From positions 640,001 to 704,000 of the forward strand of contig JAYFMW010000017.1 in NCBI GenBank assembly GCA_042408215.1: a stretch of DNA of 64,000 nucleotides, in the 5' to 3' direction. Below, in pieces: positions 6,709 to 60,570 of the stretch. The number at the start of each line of letters is the position of its first letter. Positions within the stretch are counted from its first letter, which is position 1. Below the pieces are notes generated by a model. It saw nothing but the letters and a program-made list of their open reading frames with translations, was not told the DNA's origin and made no database searches. Both the position numbers and the translations under genes were made by a program. Origin of the DNA: Microcoleus sp. (GTDB lineage Bacteria; Cyanobacteriota; Cyanobacteriia; Cyanobacteriales; Microcoleaceae).

Positions 6709-6776
6709 ACAAGAATACGCGGCTCCCCGCAGGCTTAAAGAAGTCGGGGATCTAACAGCGATCGCATTTTACGTTA

Positions 6777-6846
6777 TTCCCAATTCCCAATTCCCAATTC
6801 CCAATTCCCAATTCCCAATTCCCAATTCCCAATTCCCGATTCCCGA
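6777..6846 (+). repeat. STRR heptamer tract (AATTCCC)n
   Basis: About 10 tandem units. Confidence 0.9.
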
Positions 6847-6889
6847 TCGCCAATTTGAGTTAATCTATTATTTTGATGAAGAAGATAAA

Positions 6890-7385: not shown

Positions 7386-10300
7386 ATGGTTCGAGAATTA
7401 GAGCGATCGAGTGCTAGTGAGAAACCCAACCAGTCCGATTTCCCCGAAACAGCACCCGCAGCCAATCCAGTATTTTTCAGGACGTACAGCCGCCGTACCG
7501 ACACGGGAAGAGAGACTTGGGCCGATGTGTGCGATCGCACCGTCAAAGGCCTCCAAAAACTCGGAGACCTCACCCCCGAAGAAACAGAGCTCCTACACCG
7601 GATGCAAAACCAGCTCAAAACCCTCGCTTCCGGCCGCTGGCTGTGGGTGGGCGGCAGCAAGTGGATCGAACAACCAGAGAATTTTTCCGGCGCATATAAT
7701 TGCTCCTCAACAAATATTCTCGACTGGAAAGCCTTCGGTTTGTTGATGGATTTGGCGATGATGGGCTGCGGCACCGGTGCAGTTTTGGAACCCAAATATA
7801 TCAACCAATTGCCACCGATTCGCAACCGCTTAACCGTGACAATGCAAGGCGAAATCGGCTCTACACCAGCTCAATTGCGCCGTCAAGAAACCGAAGTAAA
7901 AATAGCAGAAAAAACCGCAACTATTTATGTCGGAGATTCTCGCCAAGGTTGGGTAAAATCCTATCAAACTTTGCTGGAATTATCCACAGATGAAAGATTT
8001 GCGGGAGCCGTTGAAATCTTCATTGATTTGAGCGATGTTCGCCCGGTGGGAGAACCTTTAAAAGGTTTTGGCGGAGTAGCAAATCCGGTGAAATTGGCAG
8101 ACCTTTATCAGCGCTGCGCGGCCATCTTGAATAAAGCTCAAGGGCGGCAGTTAAATTCAGTAGAATGCTGCGTGTTGATAGATGAAGCAGCGGTCACAAT
8201 TGTTGCTGGAAATATCCGGCGCAGCGCGGGAATTCGTCAGTTTGATTCTGGTGATGAACTAGGGGCAAATGCCAAGGACAATCTCTGGCAACAAGATGAA
8301 AATGGCAACTGGAAAATAGATCCAGAACGCGATGCTTTGAGAATGGCAAATCACTCTCGTGTTTTCCATTACAAACCTACCTTAGAAGAATGTATTGATG
8401 CTGTAAGAAAACAGTATTATTCTGGCGAAGGTGCAATTCAATGGGCTGGTGAAGCTGTAGCTAGAGCTAACGTTGATTTAATTCCAACGCCGAGTCTTAA
8501 ACTTGAGTTTTTGAAAGCTTACAACGAAGGAAAAGCTAAACAGTGGTTCCAGGAAGGCTATCCTAATATGACTGCTGATGAATTAGAGCATCGGTCAGTC
8601 CGTTTGGGATTAAACCCGTGTGGTAAGTAATTTTGCCTCACGTTAAAAACCCCGCAAATTCGGAGAAGACTGAGATGTTAATTCCGAGGTAAGTAAGGGA
8701 ATTAAAAATCCTTTACCACCGTAGAGCGTACCAGGTGAACCTTCTTTTTTGAAGAATATAATCCTGGCAAGAGTGCGGGGCATTTACCACTAGAGTAAAT
8801 GAAAAAGTACGCCGAGCTACAGGTAAAATGGAATCTGTAGAACTAGAGGATAAAAAGCCTTTAGGATAACAAAACTGGAAATCATCGGCTCTAATTTTCA
8901 CTGTGTCAGTGGAGAGACTCTGCTAATTACTAGAGACGGACTGCATCAAATAAAGGATGTTGTTGGAACTGAAATCGAGATTTGGAATGGTCAAAGATGG
9001 AGTTCTGTCACACCATTTCAGACAGCGAGTGATACCAAGGTTGGACGACGCAAACTTTATCGTGTGAAGTTTGCTGATGGTACTTATCTGGATGCCACAG
9101 AATATCATCGTTTCTTTGTCAAGGATCGATTTGGTAAAGTTTACCAGGAAGTCCAAACCAAAGACTTGATGGATACAAGTCGATATAGCATTCATACTGA
9201 ACCTTTCACAATTCAGTATGAAGATGGCATGAATATCGATGCAAGTTATGCTTACACTTTGGGTGTGGCTGTAGGAGATGGAACTACAGACAAAAATGAT
9301 CATGCAAAAGTTCGACTTTACGAAGGAAAAATGGCATTGTCAGTAGCAGGAAATAAGTCGCCTGACAGAAACTATGACTATTTACCTGTTTTTACAGATG
9401 TAACTAACTTGAGCTTTTCTGGAGAATTTCTGAAAAGTTTGAAAGTTAACCCAGAAGCACTAAATGTAATTGCTAGCTGGAATCGGCAAGCAATTTTACA
9501 TTTTATTGCTGGATTAGCCGATACGGACGGATCGAATACCCATAGTAATGGTATCAGAATTTATATTTCTGACCGCGATCGCGCTTTCAGAGTTCAGTTA
9601 CTTTTGACCAAATGTGGTATTCGCTCATCGCTAAATCTTTCTGCTCATCAAGGAGCAGTTACTAATTACGGTGTCCGAAGTCGGGATTTGTACTACTTGC
9701 AAATTACTGACTGTGGTGAAATTCCTTGTCAGCGGTTAGATGTGAGCAAAGGGACGAAGGCTAAACACAAAGGTAAATGGCAAGTTATCAGAAGTGTCGA
9801 AGAATTACCAGGATTGCATGATACTTACTGTTTCAACGAACCAGAGTTTCATAAGGGAGTTTTCGGCAATACCCTAACTGGAAACTGTAACTTGGCTGAG
9901 GTTCACCTCAATCAAATAGACCCTTACAACTTCAAAGAACAAGAAGAAGCCTTCAGGGCCGGAGCTCTATCTGTCGCGGTACTTCTCAATCACAAATTTA
10001 GCGAACCTCGCTATCAATATAGCCGCGAATTAGACCCGATTGTCGGCGTATCTTTCACGGGATTGTTCGACTTCTTCGTTCATGCTTTTGGCGTTGAGTG
10101 GCTGCGCTGGTGGGTGGAAGGTCGCCCGCAAACCGAGCAGGGAATGGCGTTTAAACAACGGGAAGAAGAGTATTTGAGTGGTTGGTGCGAGATTGTGAAT
10201 GGGGTAGTTTGGGATTATTGCGATCGCCATTCATTAAAACGCCCAAATCGCTGCACAACCGTTCAACCATCGGGTACAAAATCTCTACTGACAGGTGCTT

Positions 10301-10932
10301 CTCCCGGCTGGCATCCCCCGAAAGCCCAGCGTTTCATTCGCCGAATCACTTTCGGCAAAAACGACCCTGTAGCCCTCGCCTGCATCGACTACGGATACAA
10401 CGTAATTCCATCTCAATCTGACAAAGATGAAGATGGTAATTTGCTAAACAATCCCTTCGATGAACGCTGTACAGAATGGCTGGTAGAAATACCCGTTGCT
10501 GTCAGTTGGGCTGATTTACCCGGTGCCGATGAAATTGACATCAACAAATTCTCAGCGGCGGCACAAATGGACTTTTATATGCAAGTGCAAAAGTTCTACG
10601 TGCGACACAACACCAGCGCGACGATTGAGTTGCGAGAAAATGAAATTGAAAGTTTGGGTACGCGGATTTATGAAGCGATTCGCGATGACGAAGGCTACAT
10701 TTCCGCCGCACTTTTAGCTCGGTTTGATGCTCTTGAAACTTTCCCGCGTTTGCCCTTTGAACCGGTGAACAAGGAAACTTATGAGACGATGTTGAAAGAC
10801 GTTTTAGTGCGTCGCCAAATTGATGTTTTTCAGGTGGCACTGAGTCGTTATGACTTGGGTGAAATGATGGATTCTGGGCCTGCGGGTTGTGATTCTGATA
10901 AGTGTTTGATGCCGGAGACTAAGGCTATTTAA
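7386..10932 (+). CDS. nrdJ: Class II (B12-dependent) ribonucleoside-triphosphate reductase; join(7386..8624,8878..10932), 1097-aa precursor containing an intein, 769 aa mature
   Basis: Exon 1 ends GLNPCG and exon 2 resumes EIIGSNFH, restoring NPCGE. After the intein it continues CNLAEVHL, TTVQPSGTKSLL and the C-terminal GCDSDKC. Confidence 0.93.
8625..8877 (+). ncRNA. Group I self-splicing intron (253 nt, no ORF) in nrdJ
   Basis: 5' exon ends in U8624 paired to G8635 in P1 and the intron ends in G8877. P3 CCCCGCA(8650-56)/TGCGGGG(8774-80); P7 GAGCGTAC(8724-31)/GTACGCC(8807-13); P8 CATTTAC/GTAAATG; P9 CTACAG/CTGTAG. Removal restores the frame. Confidence 0.92.
8902..9885 (+). mobile_element. 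Intein (328 aa) with LAGLIDADG homing endonuclease in NrdJ
   Basis: N-terminus CVSGETLLITRDG; endonuclease blocks TLGVAVGDG and FIAGLADTDGS; block F DTYCFNEPEFH; C-terminus TLTGN followed by Cys+1. Confidence 0.92.
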
Positions 10933-11862: not shown

Positions 11863-12215
11863 CATTAGTGTCAATTTAAGCCTTAAATCCCTGAAAAATA
11901 TTGCTTTGACCTGAGTCTAGATCCCCCTAAATCCCCCTTAAGAAGGGGGACTTTGAGCAAGTTCTTGTCCCCCCCTTCTTAAGCAGGGCTGTTTCATTCT
12001 CAGGAAAACCAGGGTTTTGTAGGGGTCGTGCCCCCGTGCCGACCCTCCCCCACCGACAATCTATCGGTTATTTCAGAGATTGGGGCGGGCACGGGGGCAC
12101 CGCCCCTACGAGAGAATGAAACAGCCCTGCCTTCTTAAGGGGGGCTAGGGGGGATCGAACTTTAATAGTTAAACATTAATCTCTGACTGGGTTAGAAGTT
12201 AAGTTGACACTAATG
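11863..12215. mobile_element. Nested MITE: outer element with 17-bp TIRs, carrying a C/G-tract palindrome interrupted by an inner 146-bp MITE (11984..12129)
   Basis: Outer TIRs CATTAGTGTCAATTTAA / TTAAGTTGACACTAATG; inner perfect TIRs CAGGGCTGTTTCATTCTC with a 10-bp target duplication CCTTCTTAAG. Confidence 0.85.
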
Positions 12216-13730: not shown

Positions 13731-15725
13731 ATGAACAGCCAAAACATCACATCATCACGCTGGATACAAGAATTTGAAAAACAACTATACCGCCGCCAAC
13801 ACATAGTTTTATACGGAAACATAGACGACCAATTCCTCTGGCGCGGCAGCTATCAAGGAATTCACGAATTCCTCACCAACTACTTCCAAGACCTCAACTT
13901 CCAGCTAATAGTCCGCTACGACTCCATAGACGGATTCACCTTTGCTCGACCGGAAATGAGCGATCGCTTTGAACAAATAACCCGCACAGCCGCCACCCGC
14001 ATCAACCCCCAATTACAAACCCAGCCCGCCCCCGCAGCCCCAGCAGCACCCGCAAACCCAATGGCTCCACCCCCCCGTGGCAATCCCGGAGCAGTGGGCC
14101 CCAGAATGAACACCAGGGTCTCCCTAGAAGACGCCTTCGGGAACCTGCGAGCCCTCGTCTCCCAAACCGCTAGCCCAGCCGCCGCCGTCGTCGATTTAGC
14201 CGACATGATCACCTCAGACGCCTCCCGGTACAGCGGCGAAGAGCGAAACGCCCTAGTATTGCTGAAAAAAAGCACCCTAGAAGCATCCCTGATCCGAGAA
14301 GGCGATTTAGCCGGTTGTCGCAACACTTTAGTCATCCTGGCTAGAGACTTACAGCGAGTCCCAGAATGGCTATACCACAACAATCCTACGGTGTCAATGA
14401 TTCAGGTATCACGGCCCAACAAAGATGAACGACGGCTGTTTGCTCAGCGGTTCCTCACAGGTTTCTATGGGGGCGATCGCATAAACAACAAACCCAGCGC
14501 CCCAGGAACACTCTCAGAGCTCGACAACCTCGCGGAAGAATTTGCTGAACTCACCGAAAACTTCCGCGCCCTAGAACTAGATGCACTGCGGGCCACATCC
14601 TGGCGCGATCGCATTTCAGTCAAACCCAAAGAAATGTGGCGGCTCATCGACTTCTACAAATTTGGGGTGCGAGATGACCCCTGGGAGCGCATGGGAGCCG
14701 AAAAGGTTTTGCAAGCCAAAACAGAGCTTCCACGCACCGTCATCGGGCAACCAAGGGCAGTACAAGCCGTAACTACCATGCTAACTACCGCCAGAATCGG
14801 ACTGACGATCGGCGGGAGCAGCGGGCGGAGTGGTAAACCAAAAGGCATTTTCTTTTTTGTTGGGCCCACCGGAGTCGGGAAAACCGAATTAGCCAAAGCC
14901 ATGACCAAATTAGTATTTGGGGACGAAAAAGCCTTCGCCCGGTTTGATATGTCAGAATACAAAGAAGAACACGCGGCGGAAAAATTAGCCGGAGCTCCTC
15001 CCGGTTTTGTCGGTTACGAAGAAGGGGGACAATTAACCAATCGAGTTATGGAAAACCCCCACAGTATATTGCTGTTTGACGAAATAGAAAAAGCTCACCC
15101 CAAAGTATTGGATAAATTCCTGCAAATCCTGGAAGATGGGCGACTCACCGACGGAAAAGGACAGACAGCATATTTCAACCAAACAGCAATTATTTTCACC
15201 AGCAACATCGGCGCATCAGATTTCACCGATCCTCAAACCGGTGCGAAGATCCGGGAAGGTATCATGGAGAAAGTAAAAGCCGGAAACGCCAATGACTTCT
15301 CCTGGGACCAAGTAGAAAACCACTTCCGCGCCGAAGTAGATTGGCATTTCACCACTCGCATCGGTCGCGCCGAACTGCTGAACCGCTTAGGAGATAATAT
15401 AGTAGTATTTGACCTGCTGCGGCCAGAGTTCATCGAATTAATCGGAGACAAATTTTTAAAACAACTCTCCGAATGCGCCATAGAAAAGTATCGACTCACC
15501 CTAAAATTCTTGCCATCAACGCTCAATGTTTTGAGGCAAAAAATGGAACGGGGAGACAATTTACTCTTTGGCGGGAGGCGAATCAAATCACTTTTAGAAA
15601 CCCTAGTCGAACGGCCATTGAATACGTGGATATTCGAGAACATTCCAGACACAAACCAATTGGCTGGACAAACCCTAGAAATCGGCATCAACAACGATGA
15701 AACCATCGAGGTAAGAGAAATATAA
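13731..15725 (+). CDS. ClpB/ClpA D2-like AAA+ ATPase with a degenerate N-terminal AAA module
   Basis: VIGQ, Walker A GPTGVGKT, RFDMSEY, pore loop GAPPGFVGYEEGG, Walker B LLFDEIEKAH, LEDGRLTDGKG; the N-terminal half has YGNIDD instead of a Walker A. Confidence 0.9.
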   Translation: MNSQNITSSRWIQEFEKQLYRRQHIVLYGNIDDQFLWRGSYQGIHEFLTNYFQDLNFQLIVRYDSIDGFTFARPEMSDRFEQITRTAATRINPQLQTQPAPAAPAAPANPMAPPPRGNPGAVGPRMNTRVSLEDAFGNLRALVSQTASPAAAVVDLADMITSDASRYSGEERNALVLLKKSTLEASLIREGDLAGCRNTLVILARDLQRVPEWLYHNNPTVSMIQVSRPNKDERRLFAQRFLTGFYGGDRINNKPSAPGTLSELDNLAEEFAELTENFRALELDALRATSWRDRISVKPKEMWRLIDFYKFGVRDDPWERMGAEKVLQAKTELPRTVIGQPRAVQAVTTMLTTARIGLTIGGSSGRSGKPKGIFFFVGPTGVGKTELAKAMTKLVFGDEKAFARFDMSEYKEEHAAEKLAGAPPGFVGYEEGGQLTNRVMENPHSILLFDEIEKAHPKVLDKFLQILEDGRLTDGKGQTAYFNQTAIIFTSNIGASDFTDPQTGAKIREGIMEKVKAGNANDFSWDQVENHFRAEVDWHFTTRIGRAELLNRLGDNIVVFDLLRPEFIELIGDKFLKQLSECAIEKYRLTLKFLPSTLNVLRQKMERGDNLLFGGRRIKSLLETLVERPLNTWIFENIPDTNQLAGQTLEIGINNDETIEVREI

Positions 15726-15767
15726 AATCCCTAGACTCCGCCCCGCCCAGAAACCCAAAAAACTCTT

Positions 15768-16217
15768 ACTCCCCCCCTTAGCAAGGGGGGGCTGGGGGGG
15801 GGTTAAAATACTCAGCAACCAACAAAAAACCCCAAAAAACTTCTAACTCCCCCCCCTTAGCAAGGGGGGGCTGGGGGGGTTAAAATACTCAGCAACCAAC
15901 AAAAAACCCCAAAAAACTTCTAACTCCCCCCCCTTAGCAAGGGGGGGCTGGGGGGGTTAAAATACTCAGCAACCAACAAAAAACCCCAAAAAACTCTAAC
16001 TCCCCCCCTTAACAAGGGGGGGCTGGGGGGGGTTAAAATACTCAGCAACCAACAAAAAACCCCAAAAAACTTCTAACTCCCCCCCTTAGCAAGGGGGGGC
16101 TGGGGGGGGTTAAAATACTCAGCAACCAACAAAAAACCCCAAAAAACTTCTAACTCCCCCCCTTAGCAAGGGGGGGCTGGGGGGGGTTAAAATACTCAGC
16201 AACCAACAAAAAACCCC
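15768..16217 (+). repeat. Six tandem ~77-bp units with core CTCCCCCCCTTAGCAAGGGGGGGCTGGGGGGGGT
   Basis: Cores at about 15770, 15848, 15925, 16001, 16078 and 16155. Confidence 0.92.
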
Positions 16218-16226
16218 TATACAACA

Positions 16227-16628
16227 ATGACAAAACTTTACAACAAAAGCTCAGAAAAATTTAAGCGGCAGAAGCTTCGCAGAGAAATGACAGAAGCTGA
16301 AAAGGAACTATGGAAACGAATCAGAAACAGACAGCTTGAGAATTGTAAATTTCGCAGACAATACAGTGTAGCAGCATTTGCGATCGACTTTTATTCACCA
16401 GAAATCAAGTTAGCACTAGAAGTTGATGGTGACAGCCATTTTGTAGAGGGCGCTGTAGAATATGATGCAGAAAGGCAAGAGTTTATTGAGTCGGCAAAGA
16501 TTAAATTTTTGAGGTTTACTAATGATGATGTTTATCATAATTTGGATGGGGTTTTAGAGGTGATTGTGGAGGGGATTAAATCGTTGAGAACATCGGGTGT
16601 TTTACCCCCCCCAGCCCCCCCTTGCTAA
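16227..16628 (+). CDS. DUF559 (Vsr-like) endonuclease domain protein
   Basis: LRREMTEAEKELW, KFRRQ, IDFY..LALEVDGDSH, YDAER, LRFTNDDV. Confidence 0.9.
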   Translation: MTKLYNKSSEKFKRQKLRREMTEAEKELWKRIRNRQLENCKFRRQYSVAAFAIDFYSPEIKLALEVDGDSHFVEGAVEYDAERQEFIESAKIKFLRFTNDDVYHNLDGVLEVIVEGIKSLRTSGVLPPPAPPC

Positions 16629-17133
16629 GGGGGGGAGCAAGAGTTAGTTTCCCTTGCTAAGGGGGGAGCAAGAGTTAGAAATGTAGATGAGATTTAATCG
16701 TTTATTGCATCAATTCTTTTACCCCCCCCCAGCCCCCCCTTGCTAAGGGGGGGAGCAAGAGTTAGTTTCCCTTGCTAAGGGGGGAGCAAGAGTTAGAAAT
16801 GTAGATGAGATTTAATCGTTTATTGCATCAACTCTTTTACCCCCCCAGCCCCCCTTGCTAAGGGGGGAGCAAGAGTTAGAAATGTAGATGAGATTTAATC
16901 GTTTATTGCATCAACTCTTTTACCCCCCCAGCCCCCCCTTGCTAAGGGGGGGAGCAAGAGTTAGAAATGTAGATGAGATTTAATCGTTTATTGCATCAAC
17001 TCTTTTACCCCCCCCAGCCCCCCCTTGCTAAGGGGGGGAGCAAGAGTTAGAAATGTAGATGAGATTTAATCGTTTATTGCATCAACTCTTTTACCCCCCC
17101 AGCCCCCCCTTGCTAAGGGGGGGAGCAAGAGTT
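16601..17133 (-). repeat. Six units (plus two half cores) carrying the reverse complement of the upstream core
   Basis: ACCCCCCCCAGCCCCCCCTTGCTAAGGGGGGGAG at about 16604, 16721, 16839, 16922, 17007 and 17093; the linker differs from the left array. Confidence 0.92.
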
Positions 17134-17208
17134 CAACCGACAATCTCACCAAAACCCGGTTTCTGAGCCCAAGTAACAACCACCAACCAACAAAACCAAC
17201 TAAAAATC

Positions 17209-19029
17209 ATGTACCCAGAAAGATTTTGGAGAAAACTACAAGGCGAAACAGTCAACAACGAATACTACCTCCAAGAATACCTAGGATGTGGAGCCTATGG
17301 AGCCGTATACAAAGCAGATCAAGTAATCATAGACCAATTCATCAGAGAAATAGCAATCAAACTAATCGCCTTAGAAGAAGATGAAACCAAAGCCAAAAAA
17401 CAACTAAACGAACTAATAGCAGCAGCCAACTTGCTACACGAAAACATCATCCGTAGCTACACAGTGGGCTTGTGCGAAATCAAAGGAGACGAATATTTAT
17501 TCATCGTCATGGAAATCGCCGCAATCACCCTAGAAAAAAAACTAAAAACCGGAAAACTCTCCATAACAGAAGCCAGAGAAATAGTCAAAGCCACAGCAGC
17601 AGTATTACACTACCTACACAATTTAAATCCGCGAAAAGTCCACAGAGACATCAAACCAGCCAACCTGCTATATGCAGATAACAAATGGAAAGTATCAGAC
17701 TTAGGACTGCTGCGAGAAATCGGCACCAACTCACTGAGAACCCAAGATAGGAGAGGAACACCATTTTATGCTCCCCCAGAATCCTACAAGGGAGTAGTAG
17801 GAACAGCATCGGATATCTGGTCACTGGGAATCATGACAGCAGAAATCCTGACAGGAAGTCTACCATTCACAGGAAAGACAGACGAAGAAGTAATGAAAAA
17901 AACCCTAGACGAACAGCCGGAAATAGACTGGTCAAAAATACCAGAACCATTCACGGCCATAGTCAGAGGATGCTTGGAAAAAGAGCGAGAAAATAGATGG
18001 ACAGTAGAACAAGTATTGACAGCATTAGAACTAAAACAGGACTTACACACTCCGACCAAAGAAACCGGGTTTTTTACTGAATCTGTTGATAACAACGAAG
18101 AATCTGATAAAAACCCGGTTTCTGAGCCCATCCTAGCCCCGGCCTTTATTAGTCGAATTGATCAATTGCTACGATCAATATCCACACCAGCCCCAAAACC
18201 AACAAAACAAACACAAACCTTTCAATTCCAAGTAATCACAGTCAACGCCAGCGGACAAATCATCAAAACAGAACAGCGACAAGCCGAATACTTTAGTGAA
18301 AACCTAGGGCGCGGAGTCAGCTTAGAAATGGTACAGATTCCCGGCGGCACATTTATGATGGGTTCCCCCGACAATGAAGAAGGTAGAAGTAATGACGAAA
18401 GTCCGCAGCATCGAGTCACAGTACCGACTTTTTTTGCAGGGAAATACGCCATCACCCAAGCACAGTGGGAAGCTGTCATGGGAAACAACCCATCGGATTT
18501 CAAAGGTGAAAAACGTCCTGTGGAAAATGTATCGTGGGATGATGCTGTCGAATTCTGTAAGAAACTCTCGCAAACAACCAGGAAAACATATCGCTTGCTG
18601 AGTGAAGCGGAATGGGAATACGCTTGTCGCGCCGGAACTACAACACCTTTCTATTTTGGGGAAACCATTACCCCAGAATTAGTTAACTACGACGGAAACC
18701 ACCCCTACGCCAAGGCCTCCAAAGGACTTTACCGCAAAGAAACAACAGATGTGGGGAGTTTTCCACCTAATGCGTTTGGATTGTACGATATGCACGGCAA
18801 TGTTTGGGAATGGTGCAGCGATAAATGGCACGATAATTATAGTGGCGCACCAACTGATGGAAGTTCTTGGGAAACTGGTGGATCTGAATACCGGGTGCAG
18901 CGTGGTGGTTCCTGGAGCACCTATGCGGTCGATTGCCGCAGTGCCTATTGTCTCTACTGCTCGGTGGACTACAGGTTGAGGAACAGGGGTTTTCGCGTAG
19001 CGGTTGCGTCGGTTTCTTCCTTGTCCTAG
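17209..19029 (+). CDS. Ser/Thr protein kinase fused to a C-terminal FGE-sulfatase (CLec-fold) domain
   Basis: [33 protein letters not shown]; then [45 protein letters not shown]. Confidence 0.93.
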
Positions 19030-19140
19030 TTTTCCCCGCGAGGACTCTTCGTTTTCTCTGCTCTTTTGCTCTCTTGCGCTTTGCGCTCTTAATTCTTTTC
19101 CCTTTCTGCCGCTTGCGGCTCGATTTTTTTTTCGACTGTG

Positions 19141-19631
19141 CCCAAGAAACCGGGTTTTTTCCGAAATCTATCGGTGACAACCAAAAATCTGATAAAAACC
19201 CGGTTTCTGAATCCTCGACTGTGCCCAAGAAACCGGGTTTTTTCCGAAATCTATCGGTGACAACGAGGTATTTGGCAAAAACCCGGTTTCTGAGCCCCAT
19301 GCGTAAATCCAAGAAACCGGGTTTTTGCCTAAATCTATCGGTGACAACGAAGTATTTCGGAAAAACCCGGTTTCTGAGCCCCATGTGTAAATCCAAGAAA
19401 CCGGGTTTTTGCCTAAATCTATCGGTGACAACGAAGTATTTCGGAAAAACCCGGTTTCTGAGCCCATGTGTAAATCCAAGAAACCGGGTTTTTGCCTAAA
19501 TCTATCGGTGACAACGAAGTATTTCGGAAAAACCCGGTTTCTGAGCCCATGTGTAAATCCAAGAAACCGGGTTTTTGCCTAAATCTATCGGTGACAACGA
19601 AGTATTTCGGAAAAACCCGGTTTCTGAGCCC
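19141..19631. repeat. REPIN-like array: six ~84-bp doublets AAGAAACCGGGTTT...AAACCCGGTTTCT
   Basis: Same REP as the arrays flanking the RAYT gene at 45438. Confidence 0.9.
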
Positions 19632-19709
19632 CTCGATTCCGCCCAGTGACAACTAAGTCATGTAAAATAACAAACAAGCCAGACAGAATTTCCACTAAAA
19701 AATAACATC

Positions 19710-22140: not shown

Positions 22141-22550
22141 ACCAAAGAAACCGGGTTTTTTACTGAATCTGTTGGTGACAACTAAGTATTTCGTAAAAAC
22201 CCGGTTTCTGAGCCCCATGCGTAAATCCAAGAAACCGGGTTTTTTACTGAATCTATCGGTGACAACGAAGTATTTCGGAAAAACCCGGTTTCTGAACCCC
22301 ATGCGTCAATCCAAGAAACCGGGTTTTTTACTGAATCTGTTGGCTACAACGAAGTATTTCGGAAAAACCCGGTTTCTGAGCCCCATGCGTAAATCCAAGA
22401 AACCGGGTTTTTTACTGAATCTGTTGGTGACAACGAAGTATTTCGGAAAAACCCGGTTTCTGAGCCCATGCGACTCCGCCAAGAAACCGGGTTTTTTACT
22501 GAATCTATCGATGACAACGAAGTATTTCGGAAAAACCCGGTTTCTGACCC
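22141..22550. repeat. REPIN-like array: five ~84-bp doublets
   Basis: AAGAAACCGGGTTTTTT...AAAAACCCGGTTTCTGA units between the convergent PP2C and gdhA genes. Confidence 0.9.
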
Positions 22551-23853: not shown

Positions 23854-24081
23854 AATAGGAAAAAAGTTCGGCAACGGATTCTGTAACGGATTTAACGGAT
23901 ACTTCGACACTTCGACTTCGCGAGCGTACAAGTGTAACGGAGGTCAGGGAGAGGGAAGTCGGGAGAAGGGAGAATAAATATCTCGGCTAACCTACTGGTT
24001 TTCCGATACTTTTTAATTTAATCACAATCTAGGTTTGATTTTGTCAACTGTCAACTGTCAACCGTCAACCGTCAACCGTCA

Positions 24082-24224
24082 TACCAATTTAATGGGTCGT
24101 TACATATATCTCGATCCCCCTAAATCCCCCTTAATAAGGGGGACTTTGAGCAGAATCTTGTTCCCCCCTTATTAAGGGGGGTTAGGGGGGATCAGATTCT
24201 ACGGGGCCTCATAAAAAACTGGTA
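24082..24224. mobile_element. 143-bp MITE with TACCAATT-type ends and 3-bp TSD (TCA), inserted in a TCAACYG STRR tract
   Basis: tca|TACCAATTT...AAACTGGTA|tca; internal C/G-tract palindrome; inverted relative at 51493..51654. Confidence 0.8.
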
Positions 24225-24427
24225 TCAACTGTCAACTGTCAACTTGTGTCGATCGCCAATCTCGCATTCCAAAGCAGAAATTAAGCATATAGACTTAAAA
24301 TAGAGGGTGATATCTCAACTCAAGACAAAACTTGAGTTCGATCGCTCAAATCGAAGCCAGCCATTAGGGGAATTAAATTCTGAGATCGATCGACTAATTA
24401 ACTCACCTTCTTAACTCAATAATTTTT

Positions 24428-25049: not shown

Positions 25050-25250
25050 GGGTATGGGGCATGGGGCATGGGGCATTGGTTATTAGTTATTAGTTATTAG
25101 TTATTAGTTATTAGTGATTAGTTATTAGTTATTAGTTATTGGTTAATTGCTACCAATGCCCAATTTCCCAATTCCCCATCCCTCCGCTTCGCTTCGCCCA
25201 ATTCCCGATGCCCAATTCCCAACTCCCAATTCCCCATGCCCAATTTCTAA
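25050..25250. repeat. Mixed STRR tracts (GGGCATG, TTATTAG, CCCAATT)
   Basis: Heptamer runs between convergent genes. Confidence 0.8.
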
Positions 25251-27261: not shown

Positions 27262-27322
27262 CAACTGTCAACTGTCAACTGTCAACTGTCAACTGTCAAC
27301 TGTCAACTGTCAACTGTCAACT
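27262..27322 (+). repeat. STRR heptamer tract (AACTGTC)n
   Basis: About 8 tandem units. Confidence 0.85.
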
Positions 27323-37134: not shown

Positions 37135-37440
37135 TTGGGAATTGGGAATTGGGAATTGGGAATGGGGAATTGGGAATGGGAATGGGAATGGGGAATGGGG
37201 AATGGGGAATGGGGAATGGGGAATGGGGATGGGGAATGGGGAATGGGGAATGGGGAATGGGGAATTGGGAATGGGGAATGGGGAATGGGGAATGGGGAAT
37301 GGGGAATGGGGAATGGGGAATGGGGAATGGGGAATGGGGAATTAGTTATTAGTTGTGGCTTATTACTAATTGTTTATTGCTTACTTGTTGGTGCCAATAC
37401 CCTATGCCCTATGCCCTATGCCCTATGCCCTATGCCCTAG
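37135..37440 (+). repeat. Long STRR tract (GGGAATG/GGGAATT)n followed by (CCCTATG)n
   Basis: About 29 units at 37135-37342 and about 6 units at 37398-37440. Confidence 0.92.
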
Positions 37441-38261: not shown

Positions 38262-39479
38262 TCAGGGGATGCTGACAAGCTCAAGAGTGCTAGTCCAGTC
38301 TTGCCGAACTAGCAACGCTCTCATTGCAATATTTCGCGCACCAACCAAATCAGCGTGTAACTCATGCCCACAACATTCGCAACGGAATAATAGCCCTTTA
38401 TTCGGTCTATTAGTATCTGAAGTATGTCCACATTTAGGACAACTTTTCGATGTGTAATGAGCTGGAACTTGAGTCGCTAATGAACCATTTAGATTAGCTT
38501 TGTAGTCGATATACCCGTGCAATTCGGCCTAAGACCATTTAGCTTTGTTTCGATTAGCTTTATGTCTCTTCTTGCTTGCCTTCTTGCCCGATTTAGTTCT
38601 AGTCCTGTCCCGTATTCCGGTTAGGTTTTCTAGTCCAATTAGGGTATTGGGTTTCGCAATATCCTTACTGATTTGGTGGTTCACATCAGCGATAAACCGT
38701 CTTTCTCTTCCCGACAGAGCAATTAATCTTCGCTTTGCAGAACGAGTGTCTTTACGCTGAAGAGTTGTCCGTGCCTTGTGATAGCGATTGGCTTTGTATC
38801 TAACTTCCTTGCCTGAATAGAATTTAGAGTTGTTTTGTAAGTCTGTTTCTACGGCAAGATAGCGCATTCCCACGTCAACACCGACAACTCTGGTGATTTT
38901 CAATGGATTGATTTCAGGCGTTTCCACTTCGACACTTACCATCAGATAGTAGGTCTTGGAGGAACGCTGATAGACAATTTTGGCCGCTCCAATCCTTGCA
39001 CCATTAGCAATTAAATCTAAATGCTTGTTATAGCCATCATACGGGACTACTATTCGACCTTGTAGGGTGATGATACTCACCTGTTGCTCGGTCTTAAAAG
39101 AGTAGTCACGCTGATAGTTTAAGGTGCAAGTCCGAGAGATCTACTTAGGGGCTTTGTCCAGCCCCTTGTACCGCCTTTTGGTGTAGCCTTTGGTAATAGC
39201 GTCGTTAGATTGTTTTACCTTAGTCCAGAGGGTTTTGTAGGTTCCAGACACTTGTCTAGGTACATTACACGCCATCTGCGCTCCAAGTCCAAATCGAATC
39301 CGTAATTCGTTGTAGACAATTTTCTGTAACTTAGCTCCCTTACTGGTTTTGCCCGCATCAAAAGCAATTTGCGAAGTGTAGTTCAAGGCATCACGGTAGG
39401 CTAAAGCAGTCTGAGACACCAAAGCTTTTTGCTCTGCGGTCAGGTTTAGTTTTAGCTTGGCAGTGATTACTTGGGGCAT
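38262..39479 (-). pseudogene. tnpB: TnpB (IS200/IS605) pseudogene with two in-frame TAG stops; element about 38148..39632
   Basis: Three same-frame segments with GVDVG, IGLENL, TSKSCPKCG..CECCG, HADLVGARNI; stops at 39141-43 and 38529-31; hairpin ends on both sides. Confidence 0.85.
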
Positions 39480-44431: not shown

Positions 44432-45415
44432 GCCCAAGAAACCCCGCGCCTAGCCAAGAAACCGGGTTTCTTGGAAAATTCACGCCTCCCCAGGAGATTT
44501 TCCGCAGAAACCCGGTTTCTGAGGCCCCCGCGCCTAGTCCAAGAAACCGGGTTTCTTGGAAAATTCACGCCTCCCCAGGAGATTTTCCGCAGAAACCCGG
44601 TTTCTGAGGCCCCCGCGCCTAGTCCAAGAAACCGGGTTTCTGCGATAATCTTGGCATCACCACCGAGATTTAGGAAGAAACCCGGTTTCTGAGGCCCCCG
44701 CGCTTAGTCCAAGAAACCGGGTTTCTCTGAAAATTCACGCCTCCCCAGGAGATTTTCCGCAGAAACCCGGTTTCTGAGGCCCCCGCGCCTAGTCCAAGAA
44801 ACCGGGTTTCTCTGAAAATTCACGCCTCCCCAAGAGATTTTCCGCAGAAACCCGGTTTCTGAGGCCCCCGCGCCTAGTCCAAGAAACCGGGTTTCTGCGA
44901 TAATCTTGGCATCACCACCGAGATTTAGGAAGAAACCCGGTTTCTGAGGCCCCCGCGCCTAGTCCAAGAAACCGGGTTTCTCTGAAAATTCACGCCTCCC
45001 CAGGAGATTTTCCGCAGAAACCCGGTTTCTGAGGCCCCCGCGCCTAGTCCAAGAAACCGGGTTTCTGCGATAATCTTGGCATCACCACCGAGATTTAGGA
45101 AGAAACCCGGTTTCTGAGGCCCCCGCGCCTAGTCCAAGAAACCGGGTTTCTCTGGAAAATTCACGCCTCCCCAGGAGATTTTCCGCAGAAACCCGGTTTC
45201 TGAGCCCCACGCGCTAATCCAAGAAACCGGGTTTCTCTGAAAATTCACGCCTCCCCAGGAGATTTTCCGCAGAAACCCGGTTTCTGAGCCCCCGCGCTTA
45301 GTCCAAGAAACCGGGTTTCTGCGATAATCTTGGTGAGGATACCGAAATTTGGGAAGAAACCCGGTTTCTGAGCCCCCGCGCCTAGTCCAAGAAACCGGGT
45401 TTCTGCGATAATTTA
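44432..45415. repeat. REPIN array upstream of RAYT: 11 complete 85-bp doublets plus one single REP
   Basis: CCAAGAAACCGGGTTTC-spacer-AGAAACCCGGTTTCTGAG with two spacer types. Confidence 0.92.
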
Positions 45416-45437: not shown

Positions 45438-46004
45438 ATGCCACGTCGTGAAGTTATCTTGCAAGCGGGTAATTACTACCATGTTTATAACCGAGGTAAT
45501 AACCGTCAGCTTATCTTTTTTGAGCGAGAAAACTATATTTATTTTTTACGAAAATTAAGAAACCATCTGATTACGAATGGTGTCGATATTATTGCCTATT
45601 GTTTAATGCCGAACCACTATCATTTATTAGTTTACCTGAAAACGGATCGCTTTTCAAAGCTGATGCAGTCATTTACCCTATCTTATGTTAAGGCTATTCA
45701 TAAACGCTATCACAGAGTTGGTTCACTATTTCAGGGACGATTCGAGGCGATTCATGTAGATAAAGAAGAGTATTTATTGCACCTAACTCGCTATATTCAC
45801 TTAAATCCAGTCTGTGCTAATATAGTTAAAAAAGCAGAAGATTGGGAGTTTTCCAGCTATCAAGAATATATCGATTTGCGCCGAGGGAGTTTACCTAAAA
45901 TAGATGAAGTGCGATCGCAATTTCAGTCAGCAGAGGCTTATCGCTACTTTTTAGAAGACTTAACTAACGATAAATTAATCCACCATCTAACCTTTGAAGA
46001 ATAG
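45438..46004 (+). mobile_element. REP-associated tyrosine transposase (RAYT / TnpA-REP, Y1 HUH)
   Basis: YYHVYNRG, HUH motif CLMPNHYHLL, LFQGRF, catalytic Tyr in RYIHLNP, WEFSSY; flanked by REP arrays. Confidence 0.92.
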
Positions 46005-46009
46005 CCAAA

Positions 46010-46852
46010 ATCCAAGAAACCGGGTTTCTGCGACAATCTCAACATCCCCACCAAGATTTACGAAGAAACCCGGTTTCTAACTCCCACGCATCGCCCCAAA
46101 ATCCAAGAAACCGGGTTTCTACCAGAATTTACGCATCCCCACCAAGATTTACGAAGAAACCCGGTTTCTAACTCCCCACCCAAAATCCCAAAAATCCAAG
46201 AAACCGGGTTTCTGCGACAATCTCAACATCCTCACCAGATTTACGAAGAAACCCGGTTTCTAACTCCCCACGCGATCGCCCCAAAATCCAAGAAACCGGG
46301 TTTCTACCAGAATTTACGCATCCCCACCAAGATTTACGAAGAAACCCGGTTTCTAACTCCCCACGCGATCGCCCCAAAATCCAAGAAACCGGGTTTCTAC
46401 CAGAATTTACGCATCCCCACCAAGATTTACGAAGAAACCCGGTTTCTAACTCCCAGGCGATCGCCCCAAAATCCAAGAAACCGGGTTTCTACCAGAATTT
46501 ACGCATCCCCACCAAGATTTACGAAGAAACCCGGTTTCTAACTCCCAGGCGATCGCCCCAAAATCCAAGAAACCGGGTTTCTGCGACAATCTCCACATCC
46601 CCACCCAGATTCAGGAAGAAACCCGGTTTCTAACCCCCCACCCAAAATCCCCAAAATCCCAGAAACCGGGTTTCTGCGACAATCTCGGAATCCCCACCCA
46701 GATTTAGGAAAGAAACCCGGTTTCTAACTCCCCACCCAAAATCCCAAAAATCCAAGAAACCGGGTTTCTGCGACAATCTCCGAATCCCCACCAAGATTTA
46801 GGAAAGAAACCCGGTTTCTAACTCCCCACGCGATCGCCCCACGCGATCGCCC
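46010..46852. repeat. REPIN array downstream of RAYT: nine ~92-bp doublets
   Basis: CCAAGAAACCGGGTTTCT-spacer-AGAAACCCGGTTTCTAAC. Confidence 0.92.
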
Positions 46853-49955: not shown

Positions 49956-51275
49956 TTAATAGCTGGTAAAAGTATAGGCATTTATGACAGTGCCATGGGA
50001 GGCGTTGAGTCCCTCCCCCTTCGCTTTTACTTCGAGCGGATTGACCCGCCTCGGCTGAACTACACAGCTCCCTATCCCATCGCTAAAAGCATTTGGGATT
50101 GCTTTTCTCAAAATATTATAAGACCCGTTAACATCGGCATTAATCAATTGACCCGACGATGTTCTATACAATCCTCTCTTAATTCGCTGACCACTAAATG
50201 TGACATCGAAGGTTCCAATATACCCGTACACAGGAATTGGATCTAAATTCAGGAAGTTCGATTGGGAAGTGTAGGATGCTTCTTGTTCTACGATCTTTAT
50301 TCCGATCAATTCAGCTTTGTACTTCAACATTTCAATTAGTCGAGCATGAGGAATGTTTACAAAGCTTTGATTAGTTTTCCTTCCTAAATCAAGCTCGTTT
50401 TTCCATTGTGCATTTTTGCCAATTACTAGCGTCCCGATATTTTGTGAGCCGAGAACATTGATGATATACCGACTAGCAGAGTGCAAGTAATTATCGACTT
50501 TTTGATGGCGACAACGGGTTAAACGCTGAATCCGTGATGAAGTTTTGCGACTTCCTTTTAACTGAGATTGTAGTCGTGCCTTACGCTTGTTGTAGAATTG
50601 ATTAATCGATTTCAGTGGTCGCCCGTTAATCAGTAAAGGGACAAATCCCGGCTGATTTGAAGTTAACGCCACTAAATTATTCAGCCCTAAGTCGATACTA
50701 GCTACTAATTCTTTGGGGTTTTCATCAAGCTCAAGGGTGGACTCCGGCTCAGTACAGGCATTGTAAATCACCTCAATTATGTAGGAATCGCATTTTGGCA
50801 CCAATCTAATTTGACAAATTCGCTCTGGTTTGATTTGGGTTTTAATTAAAATATTAGTACCCGACAGCTTGATAATTCCTTTTTTTAGTTCCTTGCTACT
50901 AATCGCCTGAATTGTATAGACGAGAATATTCCGACCCTTGACTTTATCTTTATACTTCGGTAATTTCGGGCGGCCTGTGAATCTCGTGGGTTCATTTTTG
51001 TAAGCTTTGACTGCTTCAAAAAAAGACTTCCAATTCTTGTCTAATATCATTAATATTTGTTGACTTACCTTGGCTGGTAATTCCTTGTATGCTGGATGAG
51101 ATTTCATCAAACGATTCATTTCGTTGTAATTTATATAACCCCATCCATAGACAAAACTCTGACGAATGACGTAGTTAGCGGCATTGTAGAGATTTTTGGA
51201 TTTAAAGGCTAATCCGTCTATTTCAACAAAACGATGTTCTGTGGATTTAATGATGTGTCTCTCTGCTAGTTGCAT
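49956..51275 (-). mobile_element. tnpB: TnpB (IS1341-type, no tnpA), apparently intact
   Basis: KNLYNAANY, RuvC-I SIDLGLNNL, EASYTS, RuvC-III NADVNGSYNILRK; candidate right end TTCAA at about 49922. Confidence 0.88.
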
Positions 51276-51405: not shown

Positions 51406-51663
51406 TAGGACTGACGCACTTTCGACGGTGTTGCCAAGTTTTGAGATTATTCGCAACACTTGCGAATGACAGAATTACATTGAAATGCGTAATACCAATT
51501 TTTTGTGAGGCTGCATAGAATTTGATCCCCCCTAACCCCCCTTAGTAAGGGGGGACAAGAGCGCGTTCAAAGTCAACCCCTACTCACACCCTACTCCCTT
51601 ATTAAGGGGGATTTAGGGGGATCAGAATATGTGCAACGACCCATTAAATTGGTATAAGTCCTA
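51406..51663. mobile_element. MITE with TAGGACTGACGCA/TGCGTAAGTCCTA ends, whose right TIR is split by a 162-bp TACCAATT-type MITE (51493..51654, TSD TAA)
   Basis: TGCG taa|TACCAATT...AATTGGTA|taa GTCCTA. Confidence 0.8.
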
Positions 51664-54114: not shown

Positions 54115-54241
54115 AGATCCCCCTAAATCCCCCTTAAGAAGGGGGACTTTGACACTCATTCTCTCCCCTTAAGAAGGGGGACGCAAGAACGATCTTGTCC
54201 CACCCCCTACTCCCCTTAAGAAGGGGGGCTAGGGGGGATCT
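54115..54241. repeat. C/G-tract palindromic element (GATCCCCCTAAATCCCCCTTAAGAAGGGGG family)
   Basis: Three CCCCTTAAGAAGGGG cores with inverted GATCCCCC/GGGGGATC ends. Confidence 0.85.
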
Positions 54242-60213: not shown

Positions 60214-60570
60214 ATCTATTTGAGATTTAAAATGGGAGATTATGTTAAGATTTTTACATCAGCCTGTTGACAAGAATGCAATATCTCAGTTACATTCTAG
60301 ATAAATTTTACCCGAAAATGGATTTTGCGATCGTGGGAGTGATGCCCGACGCCAACGGCATTGGCAAACCAGATATTTACATAGCAAAGTAATTTTGTCA
60401 TTCAGAGTGAAACGAAGAATCTCAAAGCCTTGTCACACCGTTACCAAGCGTAAGTCCTGAACTAATAATTAATAACTAATAACCAATCACCAATCACCAA
60501 TCACCAATAACTAATAACTAATCAACCAATAACTAATAACTAATAACCCATAACAAAGAACTAATAACTT

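Follow-up and report, generated by a model that had tools for sequence, protein, structure and literature searches.

A DUF559 nuclease gene between inverted arrays of a triplex-type repeat in Microcoleus: a candidate selfish nuclease-repeat cassette

In the 64,000-nt stretch of Microcoleus DNA analysed here (the window), a gene for a 133-aa DUF559 protein (16227-16628) lies between two tandem arrays of a short hairpin-forming repeat, the core, and the cores of one array are inverted relative to those of the other. Comparisons of sequence within the source genome, among 61 genomes of the genus and across phyla establish the architecture of this locus, a non-random and lineage-specific association of the core with DUF559 genes, selection on both, and relocation of the unit. 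From these patterns we infer that DUF559 acts on the core. We lean towards a reading of the locus as a compact selfish cassette, in which the DUF559 nuclease would act on its own motif variant and repair between the motif copies would drive arrays, rearrangement and spread. A selfish nuclease-repeat system had already been proposed for this locus in a note made from the letters of the window (the original prediction). The partnership stood up in the bracketing of the genes, in co-variation and in motif density across phyla; the mechanism keeps the conditional form given to it below, and the repeat itself proved not to be new, being of the BoxC/PIT/TM class II kind.

Layout of the cassette and fold of its protein

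The source genome is cyanobacterial (7.36 Mb, 45% G+C), and its nearest public contigs are titled Microcoleus. The DUF559 gene is intact and, like the features described here for the cassette, was read on the + strand. It is preceded by a left tandem array of six 77-nt units (15754-16217; 6.0 copies, 97% matches) and followed by a right tandem array (16600-17133) with periods of 118 nt (2.4 copies) and 85 nt (4.3 copies). A left core, written here as '>', reads C7-8 TTAGCAA G7 CT G7-9, and a right core, written as '<', is its exact reverse complement. The six '>' cores are located at 15771-15802, 15849-15879, 15926-15956, 16002-16032 (where the loop is TTAACAA), 16079-16109 and 16156-16186. 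The six '<' cores are located at 16605-16635, 16722-16753, 16840-16867, 16923-16952, 17008-17038 and 17094-17123, with successive spacings of 117, 118, 83, 85 and 86 nt, and the first two units of the right array each hold an extra half core (~16648-16678 and ~16766-16796). These coordinates confirm the six upstream and six reverse-complement downstream copies counted in the original prediction. The 19-mer core had no match in any of 100 shuffles of the window.

The gene-proximal left core (16149-16192) forms the left terminal inverted repeat of the cassette, and a short leader (16193-16226) connects it to the ATG. The right terminal inverted repeat is the gene-proximal '<' core (16600-16645), which overlaps the 3' end of the open reading frame (ORF). 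The two inverted arms are 47 nt long and 96% complementary (AACTCTTACT...TTAAA). As had been noticed earlier, the stop codon (TAA, 16626-16628) falls within the first right-hand core, more exactly inside its hairpin loop, and the last nine codons of the gene (VLPPPAPPC) are encoded by core sequence.

Each left unit consists of an outer AACT(C/T)T(T/A)ACT, the core, TTAAAAT and a linker. A comparison of the arms bore out the earlier observation that the linkers differ between the two sides while the core is conserved. The linkers of the left array are repeats of the 5' leader of the gene, those of the right array are diverged copies (73%) of its final ~40 nt, and the two kinds are dissimilar. 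Therefore, the arrays appear to have grown via re-duplication of the two ends of the cassette. The lengths of C-runs and G-runs vary from 7 to 9 among otherwise identical units. Public contigs break at the cores, and one DNA contig skips from 15741 to 15993, which makes it an array-length variant; the read data consisted of assembled contigs only, which are uninformative on excision or inversion of the cassette. The neighbouring genes code for an AAA+ ATPase (13731-15725) on one side and a Ser/Thr kinase-FGE-sulfatase protein (17209-19029) on the other.

The protein matched the Pfam family PF04480 (DUF559) over residues 13-116 with an E-value of 5.3e-29 and 100.7 bits (cut-off 20.6). For the AlphaFold (AF2) model, with pLDDT of 89.3, the best Foldseek match was 3HRL, a Neisseria DUF559 structure (E 2e-6, TM-score with respect to the target 0.93), which was also matched by sequence (E 4e-12). 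The second-best match was 3R3P, the catalytic domain of the homing endonuclease I-Bth0305I (probability 1.00, TM-score 0.71), followed by the Vsr-like domains of AbaSI/PvuRts1I and then by Vsr itself (1VSR, E 0.07). Residues E65, D67, G68, S70, H71, D80, R83 and R96 were invariant among 45 sequences, and D54 was conserved in at least 90%. The conserved E65, D67, H71 and D80, like the second rank of 3R3P, may point to the composite E-D-x-H-D residues of the EDxHD family, a likeness read from conservation and fold ranking. The window protein is thus predicted to have a Vsr-like alpha/beta nuclease fold with conserved catalytic-type residues.

To our knowledge, DUF559 is a very widespread domain with no assigned role. 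The original prediction had described it as a Vsr-like fold lacking a role; the fold is upheld by the matches to 3HRL, 3R3P and 1VSR, and the statement about the role needs a qualifier, since the EDxHD homing endonucleases are characterised relatives with the Vsr fold. According to the portions of Taylor et al. 2011 (PMC3239194) drawn on here, I-Bth0305I founds this Vsr-derived family, whose members may be intronic, located within inteins or free-standing; the enzyme cleaves a pseudopalindromic site and leaves 2-nt 5' overhangs.

For 20 intact orthologues the median dN/dS was 0.156. In the same orthologues the third-position identity was 0.99 across the 30 nt shared by ORF and core, compared to 0.86 in the rest of the gene. 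The low dN/dS together with the nearly fixed third positions means that purifying selection, as read from these alignments, holds both the DUF559 protein and the cores.

Pairing of DUF559 genes with lineage-specific cores

There are four DUF559 genes in the source genome. The window gene belongs to a lineage that we call A; the other three, ~37-40% identical to the window protein, make up lineage B, with two tandem 797-nt units on contig C29 and one unit on C8. Each lineage-B gene is preceded by 2-4 tandem '>' cores and followed, directly after the stop codon, by a '<' core, and these cores are of their own variant, C7 TTCTTAA G6 YTA G6 ATC. All four genes are therefore preceded by 2-6 '>' cores, and their '<' core either coincides with the stop codon or comes after it.

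We scanned 11,542 six-frame ORFs of at least 80 aa for a '>' core no more than 200 nt upstream, together with a '<' core at the stop codon. Only six ORFs were bracketed in this way. Three of them are DUF559 genes, and the fourth DUF559 gene misses only via a degenerate right core; the remaining three, out of 11,538 non-DUF559 ORFs, are unrelated. Genome-wide, '><' core pairs spaced by 401-700 nt enclosed DUF559 genes only, and the six pairs spaced by 700-1200 nt enclosed unrelated ordinary genes. Among the 15 strongest Y1_Tnp genes (of 20 matches; five fragments were left out), none had these cores within 700 nt. The pairing of DUF559 and the core in this genome is not due to chance.

Similar bracketing was observed in the genus. 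Among the 22 loci fetched with the window protein, 16 had '>' cores upstream and a '<' core at the stop, and three of the other six were cut by contig ends. Three DUF559 lineages, A, B and C, co-exist in the genus, and counting over distinct genes in the fetched loci we found that each lineage goes with its own core variant. A-type cores, and none of the B or C type, accompanied all 30 lineage-A genes; B-type cores were present at 13 of 14 lineage-B genes, and C-type cores (CCCCTCCNGGGAGGGG YTA GGGG) at 2 of 3 lineage-C genes. The co-variation of protein and repeat, which the original prediction had named as a check, is therefore seen.

The same tendency was visible in counts over whole genomes. 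The C-type core occurred in 6 of 61 genomes, with 4 of these among the five genomes having a lineage-C gene and 2 among the 56 others (Fisher p 1.4e-4); for two of the five genomes the assignment to lineage C came from the profile range rather than from inspection of the sequence. In two genomes copies of the C-type core were located far from the gene. The median number of A-type cores was 31.5 in the 26 genomes where an A gene was seen, compared to 11 in the other 35 (one-sided p 2e-5, uncorrected). The generic core pattern was present in all 61 genomes, with 13-457 copies and the highest number in the source genome, and DUF559 was found in 51 of 61 genomes, at 0-5 copies per genome. The core count correlated with the DUF559 count (rho 0.53 over 61 genomes, uncorrected for phylogeny, with each gene adding a few cores of its own), and the median number of cores was 36, 49, 68.5 and 104.5 for genomes with 0, 1, 2 and 3 DUF559 genes, respectively.

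Orthologues of the window gene (84-98% aa identity) were found in at least five different contexts. In one genome only the gene lies beside the kinase gene; in three it precedes an FHA-kinase gene, in two it follows a gltB paralogue, and other genomes have it at other places. Beyond the outer edges of the cores, the contexts no longer resemble one another. As judged from these junctions, the cassette has relocated between genomic contexts. The size of the arrays in the genus ranges from 1 to 7 units, and one copy of the gene is inverted between its arms (L014).

The junctions were also compared as candidate empty sites, and the following were rejected. In a relative (G024, locus L037) the AAA+ gene (73% aa identity) is joined directly, via an overlapping ATG, to the VWA gene, and the whole 4-kb block 15726-19709 is absent rather than the cassette alone. 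Downstream of gltB, the source genome has a toxin-antitoxin module and G069 a truncated left end, and in G042 and G066 the sequence diverges immediately after the terminator. At the FHA-kinase site, deletions run from the cassette into the kinase gene in both the source genome and G002. Compared with G024, the segment made of the DUF559 cassette, the kinase-FGE gene and an 83-nt repeat array is an insertion into, or a deletion from, an AAA+-VWA-FHA-PP2C operon.

A scan of one genome per species gave 578 relatives, of which the best 80 matches to the window lineage were kept. They come from cyanobacteria, Chlorobiaceae, Nitrospirota, Nitrospinota, Bacteroidota, Ignavibacteriota, Patescibacteria, Actinomycetota and metagenome-assembled genomes of Proteobacteria. 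With a finder for C-stem/G-stem/mirror-G-stem motifs written for this analysis, a C-G-G motif was detected within 400 nt of the gene in 77 of the 80 loci. Near the gene there were 2.98 motifs per kb, ~31 times the density of 0.095 per kb over the remainder of the loci; outside cyanobacteria 39 of 41 loci had the motif, with densities of 2.51 and 0.036 per kb, respectively. At all three levels most DUF559 homologues were repeat-flanked (3-4 of 4 genes in the genome against 3 of 11,538 ORFs; 16 of 22 genus loci; 77 of 80 loci across phyla), so the outcome named beforehand as refuting, homologues flanked no more often than random genes, did not occur.

In the 76 loci with an intact ORF, a motif started within 60 nt of the stop codon in 47 cases (in 30 of these at or before the stop), a motif ended within 120 nt of the start codon in 57, and motifs were present at both start and stop in 40. 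The nearest upstream motif was '>' in 50 of these loci and '<' in 12, and the nearest downstream motif was '<' in 39 and '>' in 17. Many loci had a full '<>' doublet on each side, of which the Microcoleus layout is the inner half. The remaining 4 of the 80 loci had premature stops. In two other cyanobacteria a DUF559 unit, with translations of its flanking repeats, is situated in frame inside genes of MmeI-family type IIL restriction-modification systems (L018 149-2926 in G031 and L023 34-2376 in G028); in one of these cases the unit splits the methyltransferase domain.

Escherichia coli K-12 provides another example. The gene ycjD (L093 6041-6840) ends inside a C-run/G-run element (CCCTCTCCC...GAGGGGG), and a copy of its final ~40 nt follows immediately, an arrangement also seen in the right array of the window; a canonical TMECO motif is located ~170 nt beyond this 3' duplication. 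A full-text search of published literature found no report linking DUF559 or YcjD to BoxC/TM-type repeats. In the portions of PMC9881135 drawn on here, the annotation 'DUF559 domain-containing protein' was 14-fold enriched among predicted targets of programmed inversion, which fits genes held between inverted repeats.

The window offers its own comparator. The only repeat-flanked gene among the 15 Y1_Tnp genes is a RAYT-like gene at 45438-46004 (+ strand), flanked by a different hairpin family, AAGAAACCGGGTTTCT. Its arrays (44442-45413, 85-nt x 11.5; 46005-46841, 92-nt x 9) are built of AAGAAACCGGGTTTCT-type inverted doublets. The likeness in layout between the DUF559 locus and this RAYT-REPIN locus, pointed out in the original prediction, is real. 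Two other arrays of the AAGAAACCGGGTTTCT family (19142-19632 and 22145-22547) bracket the VWA-FHA-PP2C genes.

The core repeat and its dispersed copies

The source genome contains 829 hairpins of the form C5+ TTNNNAA G5+ and 783 oriented cores, in which the hairpin is followed by the third run. In 142 pairs two cores form '<>' inverted doublets at a spacing of up to 60 nt, and many cores are also found in tandem arrays. The core can be read as C7(TT), AGC, (AA)G7, CT, G7-9, that is, in the order C-stem, G-stem, G-stem. The published rules for a TM motif search ask for exactly these three consecutive blocks, in which a stem measures 6-15 nt and a loop 1-6 nt (Holder 2015, PMC4666352). The core conforms to these class II triplex rules and is called by the motif finder; its first loop is 3 nt long when the TT/AA pairs are assigned to the hairpin, and 7 nt long when they are not. 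The TMECO consensus, CCCTCNCCC N3-6 GGGNGAGGG N3 GGGNGAGGG, does not describe it: the stems in the window are homopolymer runs, and the window core is for this reason a relative of that consensus and not a member. At other cyanobacterial DUF559 loci (e.g., L019 and L112) the stems are much nearer to the TMECO consensus. On this pattern we take the core to be a cyanobacterial relative of the published BoxC/PIT/TM class II (C-G-G) intrastrand-triplex repeats.

As single-stranded DNA the core hairpin had a predicted folding energy of -10.5 to -10.9 kcal/mol (z from -1.7 to -2.8), and the hairpin at the stop codon -10.5 kcal/mol (z -2.5). A G-quadruplex is a less likely fold of the core and was set aside as the primary one, because a core offers no more than two G-runs, with ~50 nt separating it from the next pair; the C-G-G order would fit a purine-motif triplex better.

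Catalogues of BoxC/PIT/TM-type repeats from E. coli, cyanobacteria and other bacteria go back to the 1990s, with no enzyme, origin or function attached to the repeats. In the portions of the main survey drawn on here (PMC4666352), cyanobacteria have very high numbers of TM motifs, the inverted doublets of E. coli pair two TM subtypes, and the motifs form stable triplexes in vitro. TM sites are described there as unstable, as rearrangement hot spots and as linked to rearranged loci, with no transposase or integrase remnants and no mobility gene ever found near them, and no functional class was found among their neighbours. The words 'endonuclease' and 'ycjD' are absent from the main text of that survey.

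Dispersed relatives of the core had been predicted in the window near 11920, 24115, 51525 and 54115, and we found them at 11933, 24126/24163, 51536 and 54129. The first is a '<' core (11923-11949), the first half of a doublet whose second hairpin loop holds a small nested element. Another '<' core is located at 51527-51554, and the one at 54119-54145 is part of a longer composite ending near 54240. The nested element is a different small inverted repeat (CAGGGCTGTTTCATTC...GAATGAAACAGCCCTG), unrelated to the core, and is placed exactly in the core hairpin loop not only in the window (~11975) but also elsewhere in the source genome (G000 C5:419258) and downstream in a locus of another genus (L021). 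This suggests that core hairpin loops may be insertion targets for small elements.

The remaining dispersed copy, a '<>' doublet (24116-24142 and 24163-24190), is the centre of a ~150-nt element at 24081-24228 that resembles a miniature inverted-repeat transposable element (MITE) and has its own termini. It is absent from the same intergenic site in two genomes of the genus. It sits in a GTCAACT heptamer array, and for this reason the identity of its flanks is uninformative on target duplication. The source genome has ~100 copies of this MITE-like element, none with a gene and none longer than 542 nt, and no autonomous insertion sequence or transposase was found between the ends of these copies. 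Heptanucleotide tandem repeats occur in the window at 155-218, 6776-6855, 24043-24081, 25075-25145, 27262-27322, 37137-37342 and 60460-60569, with up to 29.9 copies (GGGAATG).

Two further features of the window were noticed. An ORF with an insertion domain of B12-dependent ribonucleotide reductase, followed by an ORF with a LAGLIDADG domain (7386-10932), resembles an nrdJ that is split or bears an intein. The window also has, at 49956-51275, an IS605 OrfB/TnpB-like gene whose TNB domain is Cas12f-like, and at 38529-39080 a shorter OrfB fragment.

Proposed mechanism, alternatives and known systems

The selfish cassette would work as follows. The nuclease would recognise its own variant of the motif, whether in duplex form or folded into a hairpin, cruciform or triplex, and would nick or cut at the motif. 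Recombinational repair between motif copies could then duplicate the ends of the cassette, giving arrays with 5' leader and 3' end linkers; the same repair could invert or delete neighbouring DNA and spread the motif, and occasionally the whole cassette would be copied to another motif-bearing site. Such a system would resemble RAYT-REPIN or a homing endonuclease, with a different class of enzyme. More tentatively, we extend this proposal to DUF559 proteins at large, which may be the missing partner enzymes of the pan-bacterial BoxC/PIT/TM repeats, each lineage recognising its own folded variant, nicking it, and spreading repeats and cassette via repair-driven copying.

Several observations weigh against the selfish cassette. 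Each mechanistic step is a proposal drawn from sequence comparison, and we know of no strand-transfer activity of a Vsr-fold nuclease alone. Ten of the 61 genus genomes hold 17-130 cores and no DUF559 match, and cores that persist in this way might be moved by something else; by analogy, REPINs likewise persist for a time after RAYT loss. The sole clean case of presence and absence is the MITE-like element and not a bare core or the cassette, which leaves room for a separate transposase, and in one of its copies (C6:632015, 542 nt) the '<' core is amplified 11x with a 37-nt period, far from DUF559. At the junctions compared across genus genomes, neither a clean empty site nor a target-site duplication was found for the cassette. 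Since the RAYT family, too, is arranged in arrays here, array formation may be a general trait of the host. On the statistical side, cassettes inherit their flanks by descent, and the co-variation at the level of flanks is therefore partly automatic, which the genome-wide counts are not; the genus-level statistics take no account of shared ancestry. The 80 loci are the best matches to the window lineage and not a random sample of DUF559, and the motif finder was made for the purpose.

The alternative that survives best, which we regard as unlikely, is that DUF559 is a passenger. The motifs and MITE-like elements would be moved by another enzyme or by host recombination, and DUF559, with a job of its own such as repair nicking or defence, would be trapped cargo or a frequent neighbour. 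The ten genomes that keep cores in the absence of DUF559 agree with this, as do the gene-less ~150-nt element with its own termini as the only clean insertion polymorphism, the tandem core amplification away from DUF559, and the lack of a functional class among TM-site neighbours in the portions of Holder 2015 (PMC4666352) cited above. Against it, no other gene family is bracketed in this manner (3 of 11,538 ORFs, all unrelated, and 0 of 15 Y1 genes), and no transposase lies between the ends of the ~100 MITE-like copies. The pairing recurs in three divergent lineages and across phyla, each with its own motif variant, whereas random cargo would vary in family. Moreover, the last codons of the gene are core sequence, and gene and core are both under purifying selection.

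Selection on the protein is also what one would expect if DUF559 were a caretaker, a host-serving structure-specific nuclease that processes repeat hairpins or triplexes (e.g., at stalled forks) and is kept beside, and regulated by, its own substrate, with the repeats spreading otherwise. We consider this improbable, still more so than the passenger. A promoter-like match that spans the hairpin loop and the TAAAAT after the third run speaks for such regulation, and the stable triplexes formed in vitro and the unstable sites reported for TM motifs (PMC4666352, in the same portions) would give a caretaker something to process. Expression has a weak trace: contigs from RNA libraries of one metatranscriptome study cover 16188-16603 and 16254-16479, where carry-over of library DNA is possible. 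Host service sits poorly with the absence of the gene from 10 of 61 core-bearing genomes of the genus and its range of 0-5 copies. The varying contexts, the in-frame sites inside MmeI-family genes and the pseudogenised 4 of 80 loci make up the pattern of a selfish element, and a generic structure nuclease has no need of lineage-specific motif variants within one genome.

The weakest alternative, that the cores are merely promoter, terminator or mRNA-stability modules with arrays from replication slippage and no enzyme-repeat relationship, is very improbable: the stable hairpin at the stop codon and a weak -35/-10 match in two left units (15857-15886 and 15934-15963; TTAGCA in the hairpin loop, an 18-nt spacer whose length is set by the G-run, and TAAAAT; 3 such sites against 1.4 +/- 1.2 in shuffles) speak for it, yet there is no T-run after that hairpin and no terminator was called there by the scan, PIT elements had no promoter or terminator activity in earlier work as cited in the portions of PMC4666352 used here, and hundreds of dispersed copies, the 47-nt inverted symmetry, the relocation and the cross-phylum pairing would be left unexplained.

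If they do belong together, BoxC/TM repeats and DUF559, both orphans, gain a testable link, including in E. coli K-12 with ycjD and its repeats. On the wider proposal for DUF559 proteins at large, a third kind of nuclease-repeat symbiosis would stand alongside RAYT-REPIN and IS-MITE, one that relies on a nuclease with the Vsr fold and on non-B DNA. It would also account for the genomic instability at BoxC/PIT/TM sites and present a new way for a nicking-type nuclease and non-B DNA to shape genomes, through arrays, inversions, deletions and in-frame insertions. The Microcoleus-type genome is unusually rich in this respect, with ~780 cores, two DUF559 lineages represented by four cassettes, and one gene flanked by 6+6 arrays.

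Among known systems, Vsr, the very-short-patch repair endonuclease, shares with the window protein its fold and part of the catalytic constellation. On the other hand, the neighbours of the window gene (AAA+ ATPase and kinase) do not include a cytosine methyltransferase gene, the zinc site motif is missing, and the genomic behaviour is selfish. The EDxHD homing endonucleases combine the Vsr fold and conserved acidic and His residues with selfishness, and I-Bth0305I also belongs to a family with free-standing members and has a pseudopalindromic site. However, I-Bth0305I has an N-terminal NUMOD/helix-turn-helix region and resides in a group I intron, whereas the window protein, known here from sequence, is a single 133-aa domain with two N-terminal helices, located outside introns and inteins and bracketed by repeats.

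Insertion sequences and MITEs resemble the cassette in their terminal inverted repeats (47 nt here), in an ORF that runs into the right repeat, and in gene-less short derivatives that far outnumber gene-bearing units. The cassette differs from them in that DUF559 is its sole ORF, with no DDE, HUH, serine or tyrosine transposase, and that its ends are amplified into tandem arrays; in addition, no target-site duplication was seen for it at the junctions compared, where clean empty sites were not found.

With the BoxC/PIT/TM repeats the core has in common the succession of C-rich stem, loop, G-rich stem, short second loop and second G-rich stem. The second loop of the lineage-B cores, TTA/CTA, is like the TTA of TMECO type A. 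Both kinds are intergenic, dispersed and often arranged as inverted doublets that join two subtypes, abundant in cyanobacteria and found at rearranged loci. The difference is in the stems, which in the window are homopolymeric (C7/G7/G8) with a TTNNNAA hairpin top, compared to CCCTCNCCC/GGGNGAGGG, and in the 2-nt second loop (CT) of the window lineage, whose triplex is putative; the portions of PMC4666352 drawn on here name no partner gene.

REPIN-RAYT systems offer a further parallel. There, too, a small nuclease gene is located between inverted copies of a dispersed hairpin repeat that occurs mostly as inverted doublets, and the numbers of repeats track the gene; the window itself contains, 29 kb from the cassette, a true RAYT locus whose arrays have the same layout. 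The DUF559 enzyme, unlike the HUH Y1 transposase of RAYTs, is predicted to have the Vsr fold of the PD-(D/E)xK type. It occurs at 0-5 copies per genome in varied contexts, compared to the one vertically kept copy of a RAYT, and its core has a third G-run and with it the potential for a triplex. A nuclease-repeat partnership of the RAYT-REPIN or homing type is thus already known in kind, and what is new here is the pairing of DUF559 with a triplex-type repeat.

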